Below the pieces are notes generated by a model that worked only from the letters and a program-made list of their open reading frames with translations, made no database searches and had not been told where the DNA came from. Shown in pieces: positions 1,298-29,012 of a DNA stretch of 64,000 nucleotides. The first letter of the stretch is position 1, and each line of letters begins with the position of its first letter. The stretch comes from Acidimicrobiia bacterium. GTDB taxonomy: Bacteria; Actinomycetota; Acidimicrobiia; Acidimicrobiales; Bin134. Location of the stretch: NCBI GenBank assembly GCA_022825005.1, contig JAJDYU010000085.1:126947-190946 (forward strand), given 5' to 3'. The translations under genes were made by a program, and so were the position numbers.

Positions 1298-3490
1298 TTG
1301 GGCAACTTCTACCCTGTGGCGGTGACCTACGAGACTTTCGGAAGACTCGAGGTGTCTAAGCCGTTGGCCGACTTCGTCAACAGTCGCTTGGCCCCAAACA
1401 CACACCTGGACATCGAACAGTTCTGGTCCTCCCTGGAACAGGCAATCGTGCGTTTCGGCCCAAGCATCAGGGCCTGCTTGGACGAGCGCGATGACTTGCA
1501 GGCCCAAATCGACTCTTGGCATCGGAATAGGGGTGATCTGCCAGCTAGCCCGATCGACTTCTTGCGCTCAATCGGCTACTTGGCCGAAGAGCCGCCACCG
1601 GTAGCAGTGACCACCGCGGGGGTCGACCCTGAAGTTGCCCGTCTGGCCGGGCCGCAGCTGGTTGTGCCGGTGGACAACGCCCGCTATGCCCTCAACGCGG
1701 CCAACGCCCGCTGGGGCAGCCTGTACGACGCCTTCTACGGAACCGACGCCATCGACGAGGTGGGCGGCGCGCAACGAAGTGGGCCGTACAACCCGGTGCG
1801 GGGCCAGCGAGTGATCGACCGGGTTCGAGCACTGCTGGACAGCCATGTCCCGCTGGCGTCGGGATCGCATGGCGACGCGGCGGCCTATGCGGTGTCTGCC
1901 GATGGTCTTCGGGTTGAATTTCCCAGTGGCGCAACCTCAGGGCTGGCCGATCCTGAGCAGTTCGCAGGGTACACCGGCACGGACTCGGCTCCAGACACGG
2001 TGTTGCTGCGCAAGCACGGCCTCCACATTGAACTGGTGATTGATCGCGACCACCCCATCGGTCGAGATGACCCCGCAGGGGTGGCCGATGTGATGATGGA
2101 ATCAGCGCTGACCACCATCATGGACCTGGAGGATTCAGTGTCCTCGGTGGACGCCGAGGACAAGACCGTGGCCTATGCCAACTGGCTCGGCCTGATGCAG
2201 GGCAACCTCACCGCCTCGTTCACCAAGGATGGTCAGCCCGTGACCCGCAGTCTGAATGAGGACTCCGCGGTGATCGACCCATTGGGGATTCAGACAACGG
2301 TGCGTCGGCGCAGCGTGATGCTGATCCGCAGCGTGGGATTGCACATGGAAACCGACATGGTTCGCCTAGACAGCCAGCCAATTCCCGAGACCATCATCGA
2401 TGTGGCGATGGCGGCTTGGTGTGCCCTCTGCGATCTGACCGCAACCGGCCCCCATCGCAATAGCCATGCCGGATCGGTTTACATCGTGATGCCAAAGCTG
2501 CACGGTCCCGGTGAAACTGCCCTTGTCCGAGATTTTTTCACCGAGATCGAGGAGGTCTTGGGCATGGCCCCCAACACGCTGAAGATGGGGATCATGGATG
2601 AGGAGCGCCGTACGTCGCTCAACTTGGCCGCCTGCATCGCCGAGGCCTCAGAGCGAGTGGTGTTCATTAACACCGGCTTCCTAGACCGCACCGGCGACGA
2701 TATCCATACCAATATGGAAGCGGGTCCCATGATCCCCAAGGGGGAGATCAAGGCGTCGGAGTGGTTGACGGCCTACGAGGAGGCCAACGTGGCCGTTGGG
2801 TTGGCCATGGGCTTGCCAGGACACGCCCAGATCGGAAAAGGCATGTGGGCTAGACCCGACGACATGGCGGCGATGTTGGATGAAAAGATCGGTCATCCTC
2901 AGGCCGGGGCAACCACCGCATGGGTCCCCTCCCCCACCGCGGCCACATTGCACGCTCTGCACTACCTGGAGACTGATGTCGGCACCCTTCAGAATGAACT
3001 GGCCGAGTCGCCGGTTGATCGCGCCGCCGCCGTCGAATCCATGTTGGCCCCCGCAGTCCTACCGCCAGATCGCGAGCTTTCCCCTGCGGAGATCCAGCGG
3101 GAACTGGACAACAACGCCCAAGGCATCTTGGGCTACGTGACCCGATGGGTGGGCCAGGGAGTGGGATGCTCCAAAGTGCCCGACATCGACGATGTCGCCT
3201 TGATGGAAGACCGGGCCACCCTGCGTATTTCCTCCCAGCACATCGCCAACTGGCTGCACCACGGGCTGCTATCTGAAGAGCAGGTAGTGGAGGCCATGCA
3301 GCGCATGGCTGCGGTGGTGGACGGTCAGAACTCCGATGACCCCGACTATGAGCCCATGAGCGGCGATTTCTCCACCAGCATCCCCTTCAGCGCTGCCCTC
3401 TCGTTGGTTCTCGAAGGTCGTGAGCAACCCAACGGTTACACCGAGGCGATCCTCACCGCTCACCGCCGCCGCCAGAAGGCAGCCAGCTAG
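1298..3490 (+). CDS. glcB: Malate synthase G
   Basis: 730-aa ORF. The N-terminus ...[23 protein letters not shown] and the overall length are typical of GlcB. It is divergent from aceA. The track start is TTG 1298; GTG 1316 or 1322 may be the true start. Confidence 0.95.
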
Positions 3491-5552: not shown

Positions 5553-6635
5553 CTAGCTCAGCTCGGCCAGTTTCACCACTTCGGCGGCAATCGGGTCGGG
5601 GGTCCTCTCAGGAAGGAACCACCGGAACCAGATGCGCCCGTGGGGCCGGCCCTGGGTGGACACCCAGTTGGGCACACCAGGGTCGTTGGCCGCGATCACG
5701 ATGGTCCACGATCCGTCGTCGTCTAGCTGCACTTTGGAGCCATTGGTGGTGACGTCGTCGTAGTCGTAGTTGAAGCAGTGCAGGAACTGGTTCCACAAGC
5801 ACATGTTCCAGAAGACGCACTCCGGTGAACTGCCCTTCAATACCAATGCCTCGTCATCGTCGAGTTCGAACGCTCCCATGGCGTAAGAGGCATCCCCGGC
5901 GGCCCAACCGAAGGTCTCGGTCGGCACCGGAAACGGGTCATCGATGTGGTTGAGGGTGCCCAGCGGGATGGGAACCATGGCGGCCTGTTCCTTCACCCAT
6001 GTCGTCGCGTGCTGGAAGCGCCGGGCCACCTCGGCATCGGTGTGTACAGCACTCCACGCGGGTGCCGGGTCGAGGCACTCGATGCTCCAACGGGCTTTCT
6101 CCCCGCCAACTGGGTCGTTCATGTAGTCGCGAGTGCAGGCCACCACGGCATCAGGAGCGAGTTTCAGGAAGTTGCCCTCGTGGTCGTTGGGGCTGACCAT
6201 CATCTCGTAGGTGCCGTCGGGATTGGGCGTCATCTGAGTGGTGTTGAGCGTTCCCACGATGCGCTCGGAGTAGCGGCCGTCGTCGGGGCCGCCGTACACG
6301 GTGAGCGACAAGTACACCGCGTCGCCGGGGTCTACGGTCATCCGGTAAGTGCGAGAGGGGTCAATTCGGGTCATGAAGTAGAACGCATCAGAGTTGTCGC
6401 CGCCCCACTTCTTGTACGGGCCCACGATCTCGGTGAACCGGGGCCGGTTGGTATCCGCCCACACGTAGACGTCCAAAGCCACCTGGGTAATGGAGAAGAT
6501 CCACCGGTAGCCCTCCAGCACCGCCTGATCGTCGGCCAGCGCCTTGGGACCGGTCAGAAACTCCTGGTCGAGGCCCTTCATGGTGTCAAGCAGTTCGTAA
6601 ACCGCCGCGCTGGTCTCAAATCCGGTATCAGTCAT
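5553..6635 (-). CDS. DUF1214-type conserved protein
   Basis: 360-aa ORF with ...GPYKKWGGDNSDAFYFMTRID... and an overall pattern like DUF1214 proteins. Coding quality is good. Confidence 0.6.
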   Translation of the reverse strand: MTDTGFETSAAVYELLDTMKGLDQEFLTGPKALADDQAVLEGYRWIFSITQVALDVYVWADTNRPRFTEIVGPYKKWGGDNSDAFYFMTRIDPSRTYRMTVDPGDAVYLSLTVYGGPDDGRYSERIVGTLNTTQMTPNPDGTYEMMVSPNDHEGNFLKLAPDAVVACTRDYMNDPVGGEKARWSIECLDPAPAWSAVHTDAEVARRFQHATTWVKEQAAMVPIPLGTLNHIDDPFPVPTETFGWAAGDASYAMGAFELDDDEALVLKGSSPECVFWNMCLWNQFLHCFNYDYDDVTTNGSKVQLDDDGSWTIVIAANDPGVPNWVSTQGRPHGRIWFRWFLPERTPDPIAAEVVKLAELS

Positions 6636-6652
6636 GGTTTCTCCCGTCGGGG

Positions 6653-7321
6653 CTATAGATCTTCATAGAGTTGTCGGTCGGCACGAACGAAGACACCGTC
6701 AGCCGTGGCGGTCACCGTTCCGTCGCACACCATTTCACCTGATGCGTAGAGCTTGCGGCCTTCTCCGCCAGAGGACCAGGCTCGGAGCTTGACCTCCCTT
6801 AACAACGGGGTGGGCCGCCGATAGACCACCGTCAACGTACCGGTGTAGCCCCCCTTGTTGTTGACCACGTTGACCACACCCAAGAGCTCATCGAAAATCT
6901 CCGCGATTATCCCGCCGTGGACCAGGCCGGGAGGGCCCGCATAAACCGGAGACAGGTTCATCCTCCCGTGAACCTCCTCCCCCTCCGCCCAGAGTTCAAC
7001 TGGCGGGGATGCCGGGTTCAACCGGCCGACGATGGGACTGAAAGGGAAGAACGCCATGGGATCGCGGGAATCGAAATTGGGAGTCAGCTCGCCCATCACC
7101 CCTTGTTGATGGAGCCCCTTCATCTGCTCCTTTTCGACCAGCGCCGCGGCCTGTTCCAGCAATTCAGTGGCCTTGGTGAGGGAATCCCCGGTGACCGTGG
7201 TGACTCGCACCGCGTTCAACACGCGCCGGGCCGCTTCGGTCAACGCCAGACGGTCGGCCCCGGCGCCGTAATCGGGGCTAGGCGCTGCGCTGGGGGCTTC
7301 CCAAAGAGGCTTTTCGCTCAA
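6653..7321 (-). CDS. PaaI/hotdog-fold thioesterase family protein
   Basis: 222-aa ORF. Hotdog core motif GLVHGGIIAEIFDELLG. Confidence 0.7.
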   Translation of the reverse strand: MSEKPLWEAPSAAPSPDYGAGADRLALTEAARRVLNAVRVTTVTGDSLTKATELLEQAAALVEKEQMKGLHQQGVMGELTPNFDSRDPMAFFPFSPIVGRLNPASPPVELWAEGEEVHGRMNLSPVYAGPPGLVHGGIIAEIFDELLGVVNVVNNKGGYTGTLTVVYRRPTPLLREVKLRAWSSGGEGRKLYASGEMVCDGTVTATADGVFVRADRQLYEDL

Positions 7322-23905: not shown

Positions 23906-24361
23906 ATGACTTCGGCGACACAGACTCCGACCATTGAAGAACTGGAATCCCTGGTGGGAAGGCAGTTCCCGGGTGGCACCTACGCGGTGGAACCGTGGCG
24001 GGTGTGGCTGACCAACGACGTGATCGGCGCCCCACAGCGAACCGACGGCATCGCCCATCCCATGTTCTGCTACTACGCGGCGATGGCCGGTTTTGGCATC
24101 TCCATCGACGAGATGTTCACCCTTTGCTACGCGTCAGCCGACGACGGTCCGATGTTCGGAGAGTGCGATATCCAGCAGATGCGCCCTTTGAAGATCGGCG
24201 CCACCTACACCGTGAGGGGCAAGATCACCAGCGCAGTCCGCAAGCAGGGGGAGCGCACCGGCACCTTTGACATCGTTGCCTTTCAGCTGGAGGTAGTTGC
24301 CCCTGATGGCGAAGTTTCTTCCGTGGTTTCCAACTCATTCATCTTTCCCAGGAGGTCCTAG
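23906..24361 (+). CDS. MaoC-N/FAS1-dehydratase-like hotdog protein (non-catalytic hydratase subunit type)
   Basis: 151 aa hotdog-like. Start/stop overlaps the downstream MaoC gene. Confidence 0.7.
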   Translation: MTSATQTPTIEELESLVGRQFPGGTYAVEPWRVWLTNDVIGAPQRTDGIAHPMFCYYAAMAGFGISIDEMFTLCYASADDGPMFGECDIQQMRPLKIGATYTVRGKITSAVRKQGERTGTFDIVAFQLEVVAPDGEVSSVVSNSFIFPRRS

Positions 24362-24771
24362 TGAGCGCGGTCCTTAATCCATCAGTGGGTGACGAACTGC
24401 CCCGTCTGGTTATCGAGGCAGTGGATGCCGGGAAGATGAAGACAATGGCCGCCTTGTTGGGCGACTCCAACCCCATCCACTGGGACGTCGACACCGTGAG
24501 AGAACTGGGTATGGGCGACCAGCCAGTTAATCAAGGGCCCAACAATCTGGGGTATGTGATGAACATGCTGGGCGATTGGGCCGGTGGCGCCGAGCGAATC
24601 CAGAACATCCGCGTTCGTTTTGTGGACAACGTCTTCGCCGGGGACCGCTTGGAGGCCGGCGGTACCGTAACTGCAATCGGCGACGATGGCACCGTCGAGT
24701 GCGATGTCTGGTTGGCAAGAGACGGCACCCACCCGGTACTGGCCGGAAAGACCACCGTCTCGTTGGCCTAA
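24361..24771 (+). CDS. MaoC family (R)-specific enoyl-CoA hydratase subunit
   Basis: 136 aa. LLGDSNPIHWD hydratase motif. Confidence 0.8.
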   Translation: MSAVLNPSVGDELPRLVIEAVDAGKMKTMAALLGDSNPIHWDVDTVRELGMGDQPVNQGPNNLGYVMNMLGDWAGGAERIQNIRVRFVDNVFAGDRLEAGGTVTAIGDDGTVECDVWLARDGTHPVLAGKTTVSLA

Positions 24772-24837
24772 GGTCAAGTATTGATGGGCGAGGCTCTTCG
24801 AATGGGAGCGAAGGAAAGTGCAGTTTTGAGTCCCGTT

Positions 24838-24855
24838 ATTAGTCCTATTACTAAT
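24838..24855. promoter_or_regulatory. Inverted repeat ATTAGT-N6-ACTAAT upstream of the His-rich gene (possible operator)
   Basis: Seen directly in the 164-bp AT-richer gap 24772..24935. The cognate regulator is unknown. Confidence 0.25.
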
Positions 24856-24935
24856 TGCAGAGAAAGATTGATGACTGGCATCGATCATGCCTAGGGTTTG
24901 GCACGTACTACTTCCTCTTCACATAAGGAGTCCTC

Positions 24936-25253
24936 ATGTCTGACCATGTTCACACTGATGCGTGCTACGACCATCCGGAGCACACCCACGCCGACCACGA
25001 AGACCACTGCGGTCAAGCCGAGCACGATCACGCCGATCACTGCGACACGCCTGAGCACACCCACGCCGACCACGAAGACCACTGCAACGAACCCGGACAC
25101 ACTCATGCTGATCACGCCGACCACTGCGACGAGGCGGAGCACGATCACGCCGATCACTGCGACACGCCTGAGCACACCCACGCCGACCACGAAGACCACT
25201 GCGATATCCCGGTACATGTCCACACCGAAGAGTGCTGTACCGCTGCGGCATAG
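24936..25253 (+). CDS. His/Asp/Cys-rich repeat protein; putative cytosolic metal-binding/buffering protein
   Basis: 105 aa with 27 His, 19 Asp and 9 Cys (own count). Repeats EH[TD]HADH(ED)HC. AAGGAG at 24925..24930 lies 5 nt before the ATG. The stop TAG overlaps GTG 25253 of the CDF gene. Confidence 0.75.
   Translation: MSDHVHTDACYDHPEHTHADHEDHCGQAEHDHADHCDTPEHTHADHEDHCNEPGHTHADHADHCDEAEHDHADHCDTPEHTHADHEDHCDIPVHVHTEECCTAAA
25020..25202 (+). repeat. Perfect 66-bp direct repeat (25020..25085 and 25137..25202) inside the His-rich gene. A third 33-bp copy lies at 24978..25010.
   Basis: Read directly: gagcacgatcacgccgatcactgcgacacgcctgagcacacccacgccgaccacgaagaccactgc occurs twice. The copy-to-copy period is 117 bp, which is in frame. 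Confidence 0.9.
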
Positions 25254-26389
25254 TGGACAAACCTGATCATGGTCATGGGCATGACCACGGCCATGCCCAT
25301 GACGATGATTGCGGACACGATCACGGGCACGACCACCACGACCACGGGCACCACGATCACGGGCACGACCACCACGACCACGGGCACCACGACCACGGGC
25401 ACGACCACCACGACCACGGGCACCATCACCATGATCTGCGAGAGGCCAGCCGAAAGAGCTTGATCACCGCGGTCACCTTGACCACCACATTCATGGTGAT
25501 TGAAGTGATCGGCGGCTTCGCGTCGGGCAGCCTGGCGCTGATCTCCGACGCCGGCCACATGCTCACCGATAGCGCGGCCATTGGCCTAGCGCTGTTCGCC
25601 ATGTGGGCTGCCGACCGAGCCGCTTCTGCCAAGCGGACATTCGGCTTTTATCGAACCGAGATCCTGGCCGCTATGTTCAATGCCCTATCCCTCTGGGTGA
25701 TCGTAGGATGGATTTTCTTCGAGGCGATTCGAAGATTCGGTGCGGATACTCACCACGTCGAAGGCGGGCTCATGCTCGGCGTGGGCACGGCCGGTCTATT
25801 GATCAACGTGTTGGTGGCCTATGTCCTCCATCGCCAATCCGGACACAGCCTGAACGTGGAGGGTGCTTTTCAGCACGTCTTGGCCGACTTGCTGGGCTCG
25901 GTGGCCGTTGTGATCTCGGGCATCTTTATCATCAGCGTGGGCTGGGACATCGTAGACCCGATCCTCAGCATGTTCATCGGTGTGCTCATCCTCTTCAGCT
26001 CTTGGAATCTCGTGTCCGAGGTATTCCACGTGCTGATTGACGGCACACCCGAGAACGTGGATGTCTACAAGCTGTGCCATGACATCGAAGAGGTGGAGGG
26101 TGTCACCATCGTCCACGATGTGCATGTACGGACGATCTCATCGGGCTATCTGTCTATGACCGCCCATGTGCTGGCCGAACCGGCTAGCGACGTTCAAGTA
26201 GGGGATGACCAGCTCCGTAGAATCCGCGAGATCGTCAAGGGTTACGGAATCCAGCACACCACCATCCAGCTTGAGCATTCGGTAGAGGGCTGCGACCAGG
26301 AGAGCCACCATGTCGACCATCTGTTTGCCACCGAGCGGGAAATCCGTCAGAAGTCCAAGCTCACCAAATTCCTAATGCATTCCCATTAG
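25253..26389 (+). CDS. Cation diffusion facilitator (CDF; CzcD/ZitB-type) divalent-metal exporter with a long His/Asp/Gly-rich N-terminal tail
   Basis: TM core ...LITAVTLTTTFMVIEVIGGFASGSLALISDAGHMLTD..., FGFYRTEILAA, and a C-terminal cytoplasmic domain. The start is GTG 25253 (coupled, TAGTG) or the track GTG 25232. Confidence 0.9.
   Translation: MDKPDHGHGHDHGHAHDDDCGHDHGHDHHDHGHHDHGHDHHDHGHHDHGHDHHDHGHHHHDLREASRKSLITAVTLTTTFMVIEVIGGFASGSLALISDAGHMLTDSAAIGLALFAMWAADRAASAKRTFGFYRTEILAAMFNALSLWVIVGWIFFEAIRRFGADTHHVEGGLMLGVGTAGLLINVLVAYVLHRQSGHSLNVEGAFQHVLADLLGSVAVVISGIFIISVGWDIVDPILSMFIGVLILFSSWNLVSEVFHVLIDGTPENVDVYKLCHDIEEVEGVTIVHDVHVRTISSGYLSMTAHVLAEPASDVQVGDDQLRRIREIVKGYGIQHTTIQLEHSVEGCDQESHHVDHLFATEREIRQKSKLTKFLMHSH
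25319..25426 (+). repeat. Three tandem 36-bp coding repeats (DHGHDHHDHGHH x3) in the CDF N-terminus
   Basis: gatcacgggcacgaccaccacgaccacgggcaccac occurs twice exactly, then once with two substitutions. Confidence 0.9.
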
Positions 26390-26457
26390 GGGGCGGCGCG
26401 AACGGGTGACCATCCATGGGTGGCATGCATACGGGTTCTCAGGTATTGGTGCAGGCT

Positions 26458-27321
26458 CTATGCAGCCAACCGGACTCTTTCTGAGCCGGTCAGGGTCCTG
26501 ACGGTAAGGGCGACCAGAAACAGGACCACCGTGCACAGGGCCATGGTGGCCCCGGCTGCGGTGTCGTGGTGGTAACTGATGAGCAATCCGACCAAGACCG
26601 AGACTGCGCCGAGGATGGCCGCGGAAACCATGATTGCCGGAATCCGACGGAACAGCATGGCGGCGGTGGACGGAGGCGCTACTAGAAAAGCGAAGACCAG
26701 CAGGTTCCCCACTGCTTGGAATGAGGCGACGATGGCGATGGCCAACAGTGCCAGCAGGGCGGCGTGGGCTAACCGAGGCCGGAGCCCCATTAGCCGGGCC
26801 TGAATCTCGTCAAAGGTCATCACCAAGAACGCCCGGTGGAGGACGACAACCCCCAACAACACGACACCGGCGATAACTAGCTGGCGGATAAGGTCGCTGT
26901 CGGTTACTCCGGTAATGGAGCCGAACAAGAAACGGCTTAGATCACCAGAGTAAGCCCCGGAGCTACTGGACATAATCACAACTGCCAAGGCCAGGAAACC
27001 CACATAAAGCAATCCGATCGAGCTGTCGTCAGACAGTGGGGAATGATGGCGGATGAGGTTTATGCCGTAGACCATGACCAGCGCGGCGATGAGCGCCCCC
27101 AGCGTCGTATCGCCCCCGACAATGAAAGCGATGGCCAGGCCGGGCAGCACACCATGGGCCAATGCCTCACCGAAAAAGCTCATCCCCCGAAGGACCACCC
27201 ACGTACCCACCGTGGATGTGGCCAGCACTGCCAACAACCCCGACCACAGGGCGTTTCGCATGAAGATGTTGTCGATGAAGGGTTCGATCCACCAGTCGAT
27301 TGGGCTGGTCAAAAACTCCAT
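26458..27321 (-). CDS. znuB: Metal (zinc-type) ABC transporter permease, ABC-3 family
   Basis: 287 aa multi-TM. ...RNALWSGLLAVLATSTVGTWVVLRGMSFFGEALAHGVLPGLA... Confidence 0.85.
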   Translation of the reverse strand: MEFLTSPIDWWIEPFIDNIFMRNALWSGLLAVLATSTVGTWVVLRGMSFFGEALAHGVLPGLAIAFIVGGDTTLGALIAALVMVYGINLIRHHSPLSDDSSIGLLYVGFLALAVVIMSSSSGAYSGDLSRFLFGSITGVTDSDLIRQLVIAGVVLLGVVVLHRAFLVMTFDEIQARLMGLRPRLAHAALLALLAIAIVASFQAVGNLLVFAFLVAPPSTAAMLFRRIPAIMVSAAILGAVSVLVGLLISYHHDTAAGATMALCTVVLFLVALTVRTLTGSERVRLAA

Positions 27322-27357: not shown

Positions 27358-28479
27358 TCACCCGAGGCTGCCGGCAATTCTTTCCGCGTTGCTACGCAAG
27401 AAACCGAGGTAGGTATCAGAATCGCTCCCCGATGGACCAAGTGATCCGGTGTCCAGTACGACAACCTCAACACCGGCCTGCCGGGCCAGGGCTTCGGCGT
27501 CATCCGAACTGTGCGATGACTCGGCAAAGATTGCCGGCACCCCCGTCTGTTCGATCAGACCGACGAGTTCCTGAAGTTCTGCCGGATTGGCTTCCCCTAT
27601 AGACGAGCCACCAGGGATTACCGTCCCAACCAATTCGAATTCATACCGGTTGGCGAAGTACCCAAGGGCATCGTGGTTGGTGACCATAAGGCGGCTCTCG
27701 TGCGGAAGCGGCGCCAAGATCTCTTCGATCTCGGCGTCGACTGCAATCAACGCATCCCGATATTCGGCCACACAGGCGCCTAGCGCATCAGCATCTAGCC
27801 CGGCCTGTGCCGCAAGAGCCTCGCTGAGGGGAACAAGCGCATCTGCCACCTTGATTGGGTCGAACCACACGTGGGGATCCTCGCCACTGTGTCCGTGCCC
27901 TTCTTCTTCGTCGCCGTGGTCCTCGCCTTCGTCCTCTTCTTCGTCGCCGTGGTCCTCGCCTTCGTCGTTGTCTTCTTCTTCCTCGTGGTGCTCTTCGCCC
28001 TCTTCAAGTTCCGCCTCGTCATCTTCGTGGTGCTCTTCGCCCTCTTCCTCTTCTTCTTCGTCGTGGTGTTCGAGCTCCATACCAGGGGCAAATCCAATGG
28101 TTTCGACGTGGTCAGCCATATGGAAGACCGGGGTTCCGGCTTCCTCTACCGCTTCAAGGGTGTCACCCAATCCCTCTTCGAGGTCGAGACCGTTGGCCAC
28201 GATCATGACGGCACTTTCCATTCGGCCCCGATCCTGCAACGAGGGTTGGAAGCCGTGGGGATCACCGCCGGGAGGAATGAGAATGATTACTTCGGCTTGG
28301 CCATCGCAAACCACATTGGCCAATACGTCGGCCCAGATGGAGGTCGTCGCCATAACGACAGGCAAGCCATCGGAGCCTGCGTCGTCGTCATTGCCGCACC
28401 CGGAAATTAGTAGAGCCAAAGCAGCCACGATCCCTGTGGCGCACACAAGGATCTTTTTGATATCAATAATCGTTCTCAC
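27358..28479 (-). CDS. znuA: Zinc ABC transporter substrate-binding lipoprotein (cluster A-I/ZnuA type) with a very long acidic/His-rich loop
   Basis: Lipobox LLISGC. GGDPHGFQPS and DPHVWFDP metal-site motifs. The ~70-aa loop is HHDEEEEEEGEEHHEDDEAELEEGEEHHEEEEDNDEGEDHGDEEEDEGEDHGDEEEGHGH. GTG start. Confidence 0.85.
   Translation of the reverse strand: MRTIIDIKKILVCATGIVAALALLISGCGNDDDAGSDGLPVVMATTSIWADVLANVVCDGQAEVIILIPPGGDPHGFQPSLQDRGRMESAVMIVANGLDLEEGLGDTLEAVEEAGTPVFHMADHVETIGFAPGMELEHHDEEEEEEGEEHHEDDEAELEEGEEHHEEEEDNDEGEDHGDEEEDEGEDHGDEEEGHGHSGEDPHVWFDPIKVADALVPLSEALAAQAGLDADALGACVAEYRDALIAVDAEIEEILAPLPHESRLMVTNHDALGYFANRYEFELVGTVIPGGSSIGEANPAELQELVGLIEQTGVPAIFAESSHSSDDAEALARQAGVEVVVLDTGSLGPSGSDSDTYLGFLRSNAERIAGSLG
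27901..27966 (-). repeat. Two tandem 33-bp coding repeats in the ZnuA acidic loop (DEGEDHGDEEE x2)
   Basis: Copies at 27901..27933 and 27934..27966 differ at one base. A second, dispersed repeat tcgtggtgctcttcgccctcttc lies at about 27983 and 28024. Confidence 0.85.
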
Positions 28480-28497
28480 TCCTGTAACAATATTTGG

Positions 28498-28512
28498 GAA
28501 TGAGTGTCATTC
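28498..28512. promoter_or_regulatory. Candidate Zur/Fur-family operator GAATGA-GTG-TCATTC in the znuA-zur divergent region
   Basis: Perfect 6-3-6 palindrome lying between the znuA start (28479) and the zur start (28542). The AATGA/TCATT half-sites resemble Fur-family boxes. Confidence 0.5.
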
Positions 28513-28541
28513 GCAAGAGCCTGATGGGATACTGATGCCAA

Positions 28542-29012
28542 ATGACTGCCGAAGCGCATTCAATGCCAGGTGACACCGACCATCTGTCGGAAATTCACCT
28601 GGAAATCGGGTCCAGATTGGCTCGCCAGGATCATCGCTATACCACCGGCCGAAGGCACTTGGTAAGTGTTCTGGCCCAAGCCGGACAGCCGATGACGCTG
28701 CCGGACATCGTGACGGCTGACCCAGACCTCGCCCAGAGCTCGGTGTACCGAAATCTGGACGTGTTGGTACGCAGCGGCGTCATCCGGCGAATCAGCGCCG
28801 GCGGCGATCACACGCACTTTGAGCTGGCCGAGCCCCTACTGGGACATCACCACCACCTAATATGCATCAGCTGTGGCGGCATCGAGGACATCCACCTTGA
28901 CAGCGAAGTGGAGATGCTGGTGGATCAGAGCCTGACTGATATTGCCTCTCGGTCCGGATTTACTCCTATCCATCACAGCCTTGACCTCCACGGCCACTGC
29001 GCCGACTGCTGA
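28542..29012 (+). CDS. zur: Fur family transcriptional regulator, probably Zur
   Basis: 156 aa. Winged-helix SSVYRNLDVLVRSGVIRR, HHHHLICISCGG and HGHCADC metal sites. Genomic context next to znuA. Confidence 0.8.
   Translation: MTAEAHSMPGDTDHLSEIHLEIGSRLARQDHRYTTGRRHLVSVLAQAGQPMTLPDIVTADPDLAQSSVYRNLDVLVRSGVIRRISAGGDHTHFELAEPLLGHHHHLICISCGGIEDIHLDSEVEMLVDQSLTDIASRSGFTPIHHSLDLHGHCADC

Follow-up and report, generated by a model that had tools for sequence, protein, structure and literature searches.

The stretch analysed here, 64,000 nt of contig JAJDYU010000085.1 from an Acidimicrobiia bacterium (assembly GCA_022825005.1), is referred to as the window, and coordinates are window positions unless a locus is named. 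On its forward strand it carries the gene for a His/Asp/Cys-rich repeat protein of 105 amino acids (aa), an open reading frame (ORF) that runs from ATG to TAG at 24936-25253 and is directly followed by a gene for a 378-aa exporter of the CDF (cation diffusion facilitator) family (25253-26389, forward strand). The translated ORF consists of an N-terminal cap, MSDHVHTDACYDHP, six units of the form HxHADHxDHC or HDHADHC, and a C-terminal cap, DIPVHVHTEECCTAAA. It contains 27 His, 19 Asp, 13 Ala, 12 Glu and 9 Cys residues, while Lys, Arg, Leu, Phe and Trp are all absent, so that 64% of its residues are potential metal ligands (His, Cys, Asp and Glu). His makes up 25.7% of the protein and never occurs in adjacent pairs, one Cys is found per repeat of 8 to 14 residues, and a single EECC motif is located at the C-terminus. 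The product has a mass of 11.9 kDa and a charge of about -31 at pH 7.4. Its highest Kyte-Doolittle value over 19 residues is -0.04, and it therefore lacks a signal peptide or membrane segment. A single-sequence AF2 prediction (pLDDT 45.6, pTM 0.14) gave no confident fold, which would weakly fit a protein that becomes ordered only around metal. A Shine-Dalgarno sequence, AAGGAG (24925-24930, forward strand), is located 5 nt upstream of the ATG and is kept in all aligned orthologues. The GC content at third codon positions matches that of the CDF gene (0.72 versus 0.74). Part of the ORF is an in-frame tandem duplication of 117 bp, corresponding to 39 aa (24975-25202, forward strand; Tandem Repeats Finder: period 117, 1.9 copies, 89% matches), with sub-periods of 33 and 42 bp. 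Additional open frames compete for the same DNA and are by-products of the CAC/GAC-rich repeats.

The stop codon of the ORF (TAG, 25251-25253) and the start codon of the CDF gene (GTG, 25253-25255) share one nucleotide in a TAGTG overlap (25251-25255, forward strand), an arrangement of the kind associated with translational coupling. This overlap is kept in all 14 loci that carry an ORF of the window's kind, termed type 1 below. The 12 nt that precede the CDF GTG show no separate Shine-Dalgarno sequence, and an alternative upstream GTG at 25232 is unavailable in one orthologous locus (L008), in which a stop codon immediately precedes RGLVDK. Translation of the CDF gene thus very probably depends on translation of the ORF. 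As the CDF gene starts within TAGTG and lacks an evident ribosome-binding site, each CDF would be made alongside one or more copies of the binding protein. Read-through of the stop codon into the transporter was considered and rejected, as the frame that follows the TAG enters a Thr-rich frame other than that of the CDF.

The exporter itself matches Pfam PF01545 (Cation_efflux) with an E-value of 2.4e-41 and 142.1 bits (cut-off 26.6) and TIGR01297 with 271.3 bits (cut-off 82.35). Its best-scoring named subfamily is the ZitB equivalog NF002923, for which the score of 252.5 bits is below the cut-off of 408; by profile score, the protein is ZitB/CzcD-like and not a certified ZitB. In its translation, HxxxD motifs are found in the second (HMLTD) and fifth (HVLAD) transmembrane segments, and such a HxxxD/HxxxD quartet is typical of Zn-type CDFs (ZitB, CzcD and ZnT). 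The transport site is accordingly predicted to be of the Zn type, and zinc is the predicted substrate. The first 60 residues form a cytosolic N-terminal tail rich in His, Asp and Gly (25253-25432, forward strand), as judged from the translation and a tandem-repeat scan that detected 3.1 copies of a 36-bp repeat with 98% identity (25316-25425, forward strand). Among orthologues this tail ranges from 32 to 93 aa, and repeat number thus changes in the tail as well as in the partner ORF. Most of these features had been reported in a first-pass annotation made from the letters of the window alone. The sequence and position of the ORF were found exactly as given there, the counts of His, Asp and Cys agree, and the absence of a signal peptide, the AAGGAG, the TAG/GTG overlap, the roughly 60 aa of H/D/G repeats at the CDF N-terminus and the competing frames were all recovered.

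To place the pair in an evolutionary context, the CDF core was scanned against species-representative genomes and the best 80 loci were retained. The closest loci belong to metagenome-assembled genomes (MAGs) of Acidimicrobiia (L007-L011, CDF identity 82-97%), one of which is labelled as marine group Sva0996. Four of these (L007-L010) share the same ORF, the same MaoC-like gene upstream, the AAGGAG, the ATG, both caps and the TAGTG. A degenerate DNA pattern of the C-terminal cap gave 20 matches on metagenome contigs, six of which are further copies and 14 of which are chance matches that lack a His-rich context; two additional, more distant copies were obtained with phmmer among 1.84 billion representative proteins. 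In total, 14 type-1 loci with 11 distinct sequence variants were assembled. Nine distinct variants beyond the window, from Acidimicrobiia genomes and metagenome contigs, are intact. The synteny survey that had been proposed in the first-pass annotation was hereby carried out, and the ORF was present in frame, with Shine-Dalgarno sequence and TAGTG, in every related Acidimicrobiia locus found. Intact type-1 proteins comprise 39, 66, 74, 102, 105, 110 or 111 aa, and all of these length differences amount to whole codons. The window protein, for instance, equals the 66-aa protein of L007 plus one in-frame duplication of 39 aa, visible as a 39-residue alignment gap in L007. Between L008 and L009, the ORFs differ at 3, 4 and 26 sites in first, second and third codon positions, respectively, and 22 codon changes are synonymous and six non-synonymous. 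Ratios of non-synonymous to synonymous substitution rates (dN/dS, Nei-Gojobori) range from 0.035 to 0.145 for the ORF and, across identical genome pairs, from 0.042 to 0.169 for the CDF core, and the positions of His and Cys are nearly invariant among the orthologues. Because the frame is conserved, shows a third-position substitution bias and a low dN/dS, and changes length only in frame, these comparisons indicate that the ORF is a real gene under purifying selection.

A decayed copy provides additional information. The only database protein recovered in the first search, P0001 (58 aa, present on 15 contigs), represents a version of this gene that has lost 1 nt behind its second repeat. Frameshifted copies are confined to one lineage (L001-L006, positions 6001-7140, and L011), which corresponds to chromosome OX638350 and matching metagenome contigs. 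In each of the six contigs examined, the adjacent CDF gene has an out-of-frame deletion of 76 nt within the part for the C-terminal domain, and that of L003 contains in addition a nonsense codon (TGC to TGA). An intact copy of the pair from the OX638350 genome was not among the 80 best CDF matches. Overall, the ORF-CDF pair is found in three genomic contexts, namely MaoC/znuB, zur/znuA and DUF2510/HisK, the last of which hosts the decayed pair with both genes disrupted in six contigs. The two genes thus appear to have moved together and decayed together. A broken ORF next to an intact CDF gene, which the first-pass annotation had named as an observation that would speak against a functional link, was not encountered, as the lone frameshifted copy adjoins a broken CDF. 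These data also bear on the proposal that the frame is no gene at all, having been opened by chance during CAC/GAC repeat expansion or being the decaying remnant of a His-rich leader region of the CDF. Several further frames are indeed open, the DNA is tandemly repeated and one lineage is frameshifted, yet the third-position bias and the dN/dS of 0.04-0.15 are specific to the ORF frame, the Shine-Dalgarno sequence, ATG, caps and stop overlap are conserved, intact copies change length only in frame and the frameshifted copy accompanies a CDF that is itself broken. This proposal is almost certainly wrong.

A different explanation grants that the ORF is translated and considers its product irrelevant: as a cis-acting leader, the act of translation, for instance through pausing that depends on metal or His-tRNA or through termination-reinitiation, would set the level of CDF. 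The stop/start overlap without a visible separate Shine-Dalgarno sequence speaks for such a leader, and a variable number of repeats would vary the transit time of the ribosome. Protein-level purifying selection that is as strong as on the CDF and preserves His and Cys over 105 codons would nevertheless be needless for a leader, and analogous modules occur in convergent, divergent, stand-alone and fused arrangements (see below) in which a leader role is impossible. RNA structure in the 5' region offers no help either. A search of 24300-25600 against Rfam (E-value up to 1) returned no NiCo or czcD motif and nothing beyond one miRNA match, below threshold and on the opposite strand, so that a riboswitch or leader RNA was rejected, and the region folds no better than shuffled sequences (z = -0.24). 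Control by a leader is therefore regarded as highly improbable.

The association extends far beyond the Acidimicrobiia. Among the 80 best CDF loci, 62 have a His/Cys-rich mini-ORF adjoining the CDF gene; the 80 loci stem mostly from Dehalococcoidia, but also from Nitrospirales, Acidobacteria and others, at CDF identities of 51-63%. Five types of mini-ORF can be distinguished by their repeats. Type 1, with the HxHxDHxxHC repeat of the window, was found in five of the loci, always upstream and with the TAGTG overlap. Type 2 (HECDxHEHH) is the most frequent (43 loci) and is encoded upstream on the same strand in 31 loci, convergently downstream in ten and as an in-frame N-terminal extension of the CDF in three (L025, L026 and L052, the last with an upstream copy in addition). 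The fused proteins show the order of module, H/D-rich tail and membrane domain, which is the same order as in the split genes. Type 3 (HCHxH) is located upstream of the CDF in seven loci. Type 4 (CCEE[T/D]HHHH) is divergent from the CDF in two loci (L060, 40-315, and L066, 3305-3760, both on the reverse strand) and carries repeats of the form MADEHADDCCEETHHHHHHGDCCEEDHHHHH; its layout, in which an acidic Cys-Cys motif is combined with poly-His, recalls Hpn, and in L066 a Fur-like ORF is located 1.3 kb downstream of the CDF. Type 5 (DCGHxAVxH...) lies just 3' of the CDF in five loci from MAGs of Nitrospirales, Acidobacteria and Rhodothermales (L027, 5098-5469; L034, 4876-5448; L047, 4935-5294; L058, 5071-5442, all forward; L050, 6059-6448, reverse). 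These ORFs of about 105 to 120 aa contain two copies of HGPDCGHxAVQHGDHTDYLxDGHLHHxHGDHCDDH, have no Pfam match and resemble a folded domain more than a simple repeat. When all 685 kb of the loci were considered, every ORF with at least 8 His and at least 2 Cys per 30 residues adjoined a CDF, with the exception of one off-frame artefact. The five types may be homologous or convergent. That type 2 is exclusive to CDF loci was rejected, as three of the four database members checked are not encoded beside a CDF and only P0009 is. Stand-alone type-2 genes (L112 and L114, both 3001-3162, and L111, 3001-3183) were observed in regions rich in transposase and resolvase genes, and their products consist of a single HECDxHEHH-GDEPGH-VHDxHECDxHEHH unit. 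From its genomic distribution, type 2 appears to be an autonomous module that is often linked to a CDF.

In the window, the pair is embedded in a neighbourhood with a zinc signature. Convergent with the CDF gene is a gene for a ZnuB-like ABC-3 permease (26458-27321, reverse strand; PF00950, 3e-62), in a synteny that is shared by L008, L009 and L097. It is followed by a gene for a ZnuA-like zinc-binding lipoprotein (27358-28479, reverse strand; PF01297, 3.3e-60) with an unusually long acidic and His-rich loop of about 70 aa, hyper-acidic and composed of Glu, Asp and His. The znuA-znuB pair has no adjacent gene for a ZnuC ATPase. At a distance of 3.3 kb from the ORF, a Fur-family (Zur-like) regulator is encoded (28542-29012, forward strand; PF01475, 9.1e-19, 68.2 bits against a cut-off of 23.1), after which an acyl-CoA dehydrogenase gene comes next. 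The spacer between znuA and zur contains a 23-bp palindrome in the regulator's own promoter, TTGGGAATGAGTGTCATTCGCAA (28494-28516, an inverted repeat and hence without strand), which is likely a Zur box and is kept in L008, L009, L010 and L097. The adjacent znuAB genes suggest that the regulator is specific for zinc.

Closer links between zur and the mini-ORF were detected in other genomes. The window regulator is 60% identical to the Fur part of the database entry P0002, a Fur protein that is directly followed by a His/Cys ORF and then a CDF. In the more distant locus L088, the order is zur, 87 nt, a single-repeat ORF of 39 aa, TAGTG and CDF. In three further loci (L087, 560-1297; L090, 718-1593; L092, 11458-12333), the zur frame is open into the His/Cys ORF without a stop codon, and fusions of 245 to 291 aa are predicted. 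The linker between both parts comprises 33 to 34 aa, is poorly conserved and varies in length by whole codons. As an internal Shine-Dalgarno sequence and ATG are retained in these loci, with the CDF then joined by TAGTG, the ORF may also be made separately. It could be argued on this basis that the module is primarily an accessory of Zur, which alters the zinc pool that Zur can sense or extends the Zur C-terminus and thereby shifts the set-point of the regulon, the CDF linkage being secondary. The orders in L088 and in the three open frames, together with the zur gene 3.3 kb away in the window, would agree with this proposal, as would the finding that actinobacterial Zur activates the CDF gene zitB via a site upstream of the -35 element (PMC5472717, PMC9371925). 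Against it, the ORF is separate from zur and always joined to the CDF by TAGTG in the window and its closest relatives, the apparent fusions retain internal start signals and may be coincidentally open linkers, and among the loci examined the other four types of mini-ORF are not consistently linked to Zur. A role as Zur accessory is considered quite improbable.

Upstream of the ORF, two elements stand out in an otherwise variable intergenic region. An AT-rich element, CCCGTTATTAGT/CCTATTACTAAT (24832-24855, forward strand), can be read as a 12-nt tandem direct repeat or as the dyad ATTAGT-N6-ACTAAT and is kept in L007-L010. This 24-nt element occurs once in the 64-kb window, with 0 occurrences expected by chance, and is dissimilar to the local Zur box; it is a candidate regulator-binding site. 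It ends 12 nt upstream of a putative -35 element (TTGATG), which is separated by an 18-nt spacer from a putative -10 element (TAGGGT; together 24868-24897, forward strand). The hexamers are conserved in L007-L010, and L088 presents the same layout (TTGAGT-18-TAGGGC), a conservation that tentatively suggests a promoter. Genes within about 10 kb of the ORF are metabolic or encode TetR and AsnC regulators, and a gene for a sensor of the ArsR/SmtB or MerR type was not found within this distance. The possibility that the ORF encodes the precursor of a ribosomally synthesized and post-translationally modified peptide (RiPP) or a metallophore was rejected, as no maturation genes are located nearby.

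The ORF product belongs to no named family. With hmmscan, no Pfam-A family was matched at E-values up to 0.01 or up to 1, NCBIfam likewise gave no match, and no PDB sequence was matched at E-values up to 1; none of the five mini-ORF types matches Pfam or NCBIfam. Protein searches of collections of 5.8 and 1.84 billion sequences recovered only three true relatives, all unnamed. The six phmmer matches among the 1.84 billion representatives comprise these three relatives and three cases of low-complexity noise, none of which is Hpn-like. A type-2 query among the 5.8 billion proteins returned 16 matches only, again all unnamed. In the literature, no description of a CDF-coupled His/Cys-rich partner ORF was found. 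These results agree with the earlier suggestion of an undescribed family, and the module is both a new sequence family and a new pairing, of a CDF with a soluble His/Cys repeat protein, among small cytosolic metal-binding and exporter-partner proteins. The first-pass annotation had also called the gene easy to miss, which is borne out by the fact that none of ten exact sequences (the ORF, orthologues and competing frames) is present in a collection of 15 billion proteins; gene callers rarely report His/Cys mini-ORFs. As it lacks Lys and Arg, the protein would remain a single 11.9-kDa fragment after trypsin treatment, without tryptic peptides by which standard bottom-up proteomics could detect it.

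Taken together, the ORF product is, with moderate confidence, best interpreted as a cytosolic, disordered Zn(II)-binding buffer or hand-off partner that is co-produced with the CDF exporter, where metal binding, metal identity and transfer are each deduced from indirect indications. Under this interpretation, it would be a small, soluble and probably intrinsically disordered polyanion of the cytosol, whose six to eight His3-4/Cys units could bind several divalent ions, most likely Zn(II) and possibly Co, Cd or Ni. The ORF would be co-transcribed with the ZitB/CzcD-type CDF gene and translated just ahead of it, and its product would act as a detached, high-capacity counterpart of the His-rich N-terminal tail of the transporter. 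Excess cytosolic zinc would be captured by the repeats (buffering) and passed by ligand exchange to the CDF tail and the transport site (hand-off), while capacity could be tuned in evolution as repeats are gained and lost in frame. Cooperation with the CDF is argued most strongly by the collinear fusions of module, H/D-rich tail and membrane domain. The exporter link drawn in the first-pass annotation is thereby reinforced, both by the analogous modules fused to CDF N-termini and by the linkage to Zur. More tentatively, the mini-ORFs as a whole might constitute the first cytosolic zinc hand-off partners (metallochaperones or antennae) for CDFs, widespread and overlooked, with at least five forms in several phyla that are free, coupled, fused to the CDF or fused to Zur and tuned by repeat number; this broader possibility is rather doubtful at present.

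Several observations weigh against the buffer and hand-off interpretation. Metal binding and metal identity are predicted from composition and context, and His, Cys and Asp ligands do not separate Zn, Ni, Co, Cd and Cu. To our knowledge, hand-off has been shown for no CDF so far. The AF2 result is a single-sequence prediction and hence weak, and repeat numbers in short-read MAGs can be mis-assembled. With respect to regulation, neither consensus sigma-70 promoters nor intrinsic terminators were found in 24600-26600, the proposed promoter being only a conserved weak match, and no recognisable site for a zinc-excess sensor is present at the ORF promoter. Control of this promoter through the Zur box was rejected, as the palindrome between znuA and zur occurs only once in the window at up to 3 mismatches. 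In addition, stand-alone type-2 genes of 53-60 aa have no CDF within 3 kb, and type 2 is convergent with the CDF in ten loci, arrangements that are more easily reconciled with an autonomous buffer than with an obligate chaperone and that argue that buffering alone can be useful. In line with this, the protein could be a stand-alone sequestration or storage protein of the metallothionein or Hpn kind, co-regulated with the exporter and without any hand-off. Its composition is Hpn-like (PMC5312948), and the isolated and convergent type-2 genes show that autonomous function is possible. For type 1, however, no copy without a CDF was found (14 of 14 loci, all with the stop/start overlap), the ORF decays together with the CDF, three genomes encode a CDF with an analogous module fused to its N-terminus, and a fixed translational stoichiometry of sink and pump has no obvious rationale unless both cooperate. 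Pure sequestration is accordingly judged unlikely, while still deserving serious attention, and a buffer that also delivers to the exporter is retained as the preferred interpretation.

The cytosol contains essentially no free Zn(II), and the way in which CDF and ZnT exporters acquire zinc is a standing mechanistic question. Partner proteins dedicated to a pump, such as CopZ and PacL, serve copper pumps and some of the P-type zinc pumps. The coupled and sometimes fused ORF-CDF pair represents a cloneable candidate for protein-mediated zinc delivery or local buffering. If the mini-ORF products are indeed hand-off partners, CDFs would draw zinc from a dedicated protein-bound pool and not from the general buffered pool. 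Gene callers and low-complexity masking miss such mini-ORFs, and tryptic proteomics would miss the product of the window ORF, which points to a systematic blind spot. Many of the genomes that encode them presumably belong to MAG lineages associated with sponges (the record titles state no biome), and the module may be notable in the metal handling of sponge-associated communities. The repeat plasticity between 39 and 111 aa can be viewed as a natural experiment in the tuning of metal capacity, and His/Cys repeat sequences could serve as compact metal-binding tags.

Several known systems resemble parts of this arrangement. A likeness to Hpn and metallothioneins had been put forward in the first-pass annotation; it holds for composition and does not extend to family membership. 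In Hpn of Helicobacter pylori, 46.7% of the residues are His and EEGCC motifs are present; one monomer can take up as many as six Ni, and its expression makes Escherichia coli tolerant (PMC5312948). Like Hpn and Hpn-2, the ORF product is small, soluble, extremely hydrophilic and dominated by His with few Cys residues, its C-terminal EECC parallels the acidic Cys-Cys motif EEGCC, and both proteins are proposed to act as reservoir or channelling proteins (PMC5312948). Homology to Hpn was not detected among the 1.84 billion representatives searched with phmmer or among PDB sequences. Hpn has two EEGCC motifs, runs of poly-His and a His content of about 47%; the ORF product has 26% His without such runs, regular HxHADHxDHC repeats and 30% Asp plus Glu. 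Moreover, Hpn operates in the nickel, urease and NikR circuit of Helicobacter, whereas the ORF of Acidimicrobiia is coupled to a CDF exporter and has its links with Zur and zinc.

Metallothioneins such as SmtA/BmtA and the mycobacterial MymT are likewise small cytosolic proteins that bind multiple metals through Cys and His and guard against excess. SmtA has a connection with zinc homeostasis and uses a Cys9His2 ligand set, and bacterial metallothioneins are encoded beside a repressor of the SmtB type. The bacterial metallothionein profile (Pfam Metallothio_Pro) was not among the hmmscan matches of the ORF product, which returned no family. The Cys-dominated ligands and fixed cluster fold of metallothioneins differ from a protein with 27 His versus 9 Cys that is repetitive, variable in length and encoded together with an exporter. 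The His-rich tails and loops of CDF and ZnT transporters (CzcD, ZitB, ZnT and MTP) are similar in composition and cytosolic location and are presumed to capture and funnel Zn. The tail of the window CDF consists of H/D/G repeats with one Cys, whereas the ORF product has a Cys in every repeat and is a separate polypeptide with its own Shine-Dalgarno sequence and start codon, and its repeat number evolves independently of that of the tail. We know of no metallochaperone established for any CDF.

Further parallels are provided by dedicated partners of metal-exporting ATPases. In the CopZ-CopA system, a soluble chaperone is co-expressed with the exporter and resembles its N-terminal metal-binding domain, and either form can turn into the other when genes fuse or split. 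CopZ folds as a ferredoxin-like HMA domain, in which a single CxxC motif serves Cu(I), whereas the ORF product, with no HMA match, no CxxC and no confident fold, would be an unstructured multi-site His/Cys repeat. PacL1 of Mycobacterium tuberculosis is a small protein encoded in an operon with, and directly upstream of, the zinc-resistance exporter CtpC, a P1B-ATPase; it is partly disordered, binds Zn through a short Asp/His motif and was proposed to donate metal to the N-terminal metal-binding domain of the pump, with CopZ-CopA type pairs cited as precedent (PMC9374683). PacL1 and the ORF product are both small actinobacterial proteins encoded directly upstream of a metal exporter, in the latter case through the TAGTG at each of the 14 loci; since that exporter is a CDF, this is a likeness by analogy only. 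PacL1, a member of PF07371 (DUF1490), combines an N-terminal transmembrane helix with Glu/Ala repeats and one motif at the C-terminus, whereas the ORF product has no membrane segment, many metal-binding units and no match to this profile. The partner of PacL1 is a P-type ATPase and that of the ORF product a CDF antiporter. By analogy, then, the genetic logic of the ORF-CDF pair resembles that of CopZ-CopA and especially that of PacL1-CtpC.

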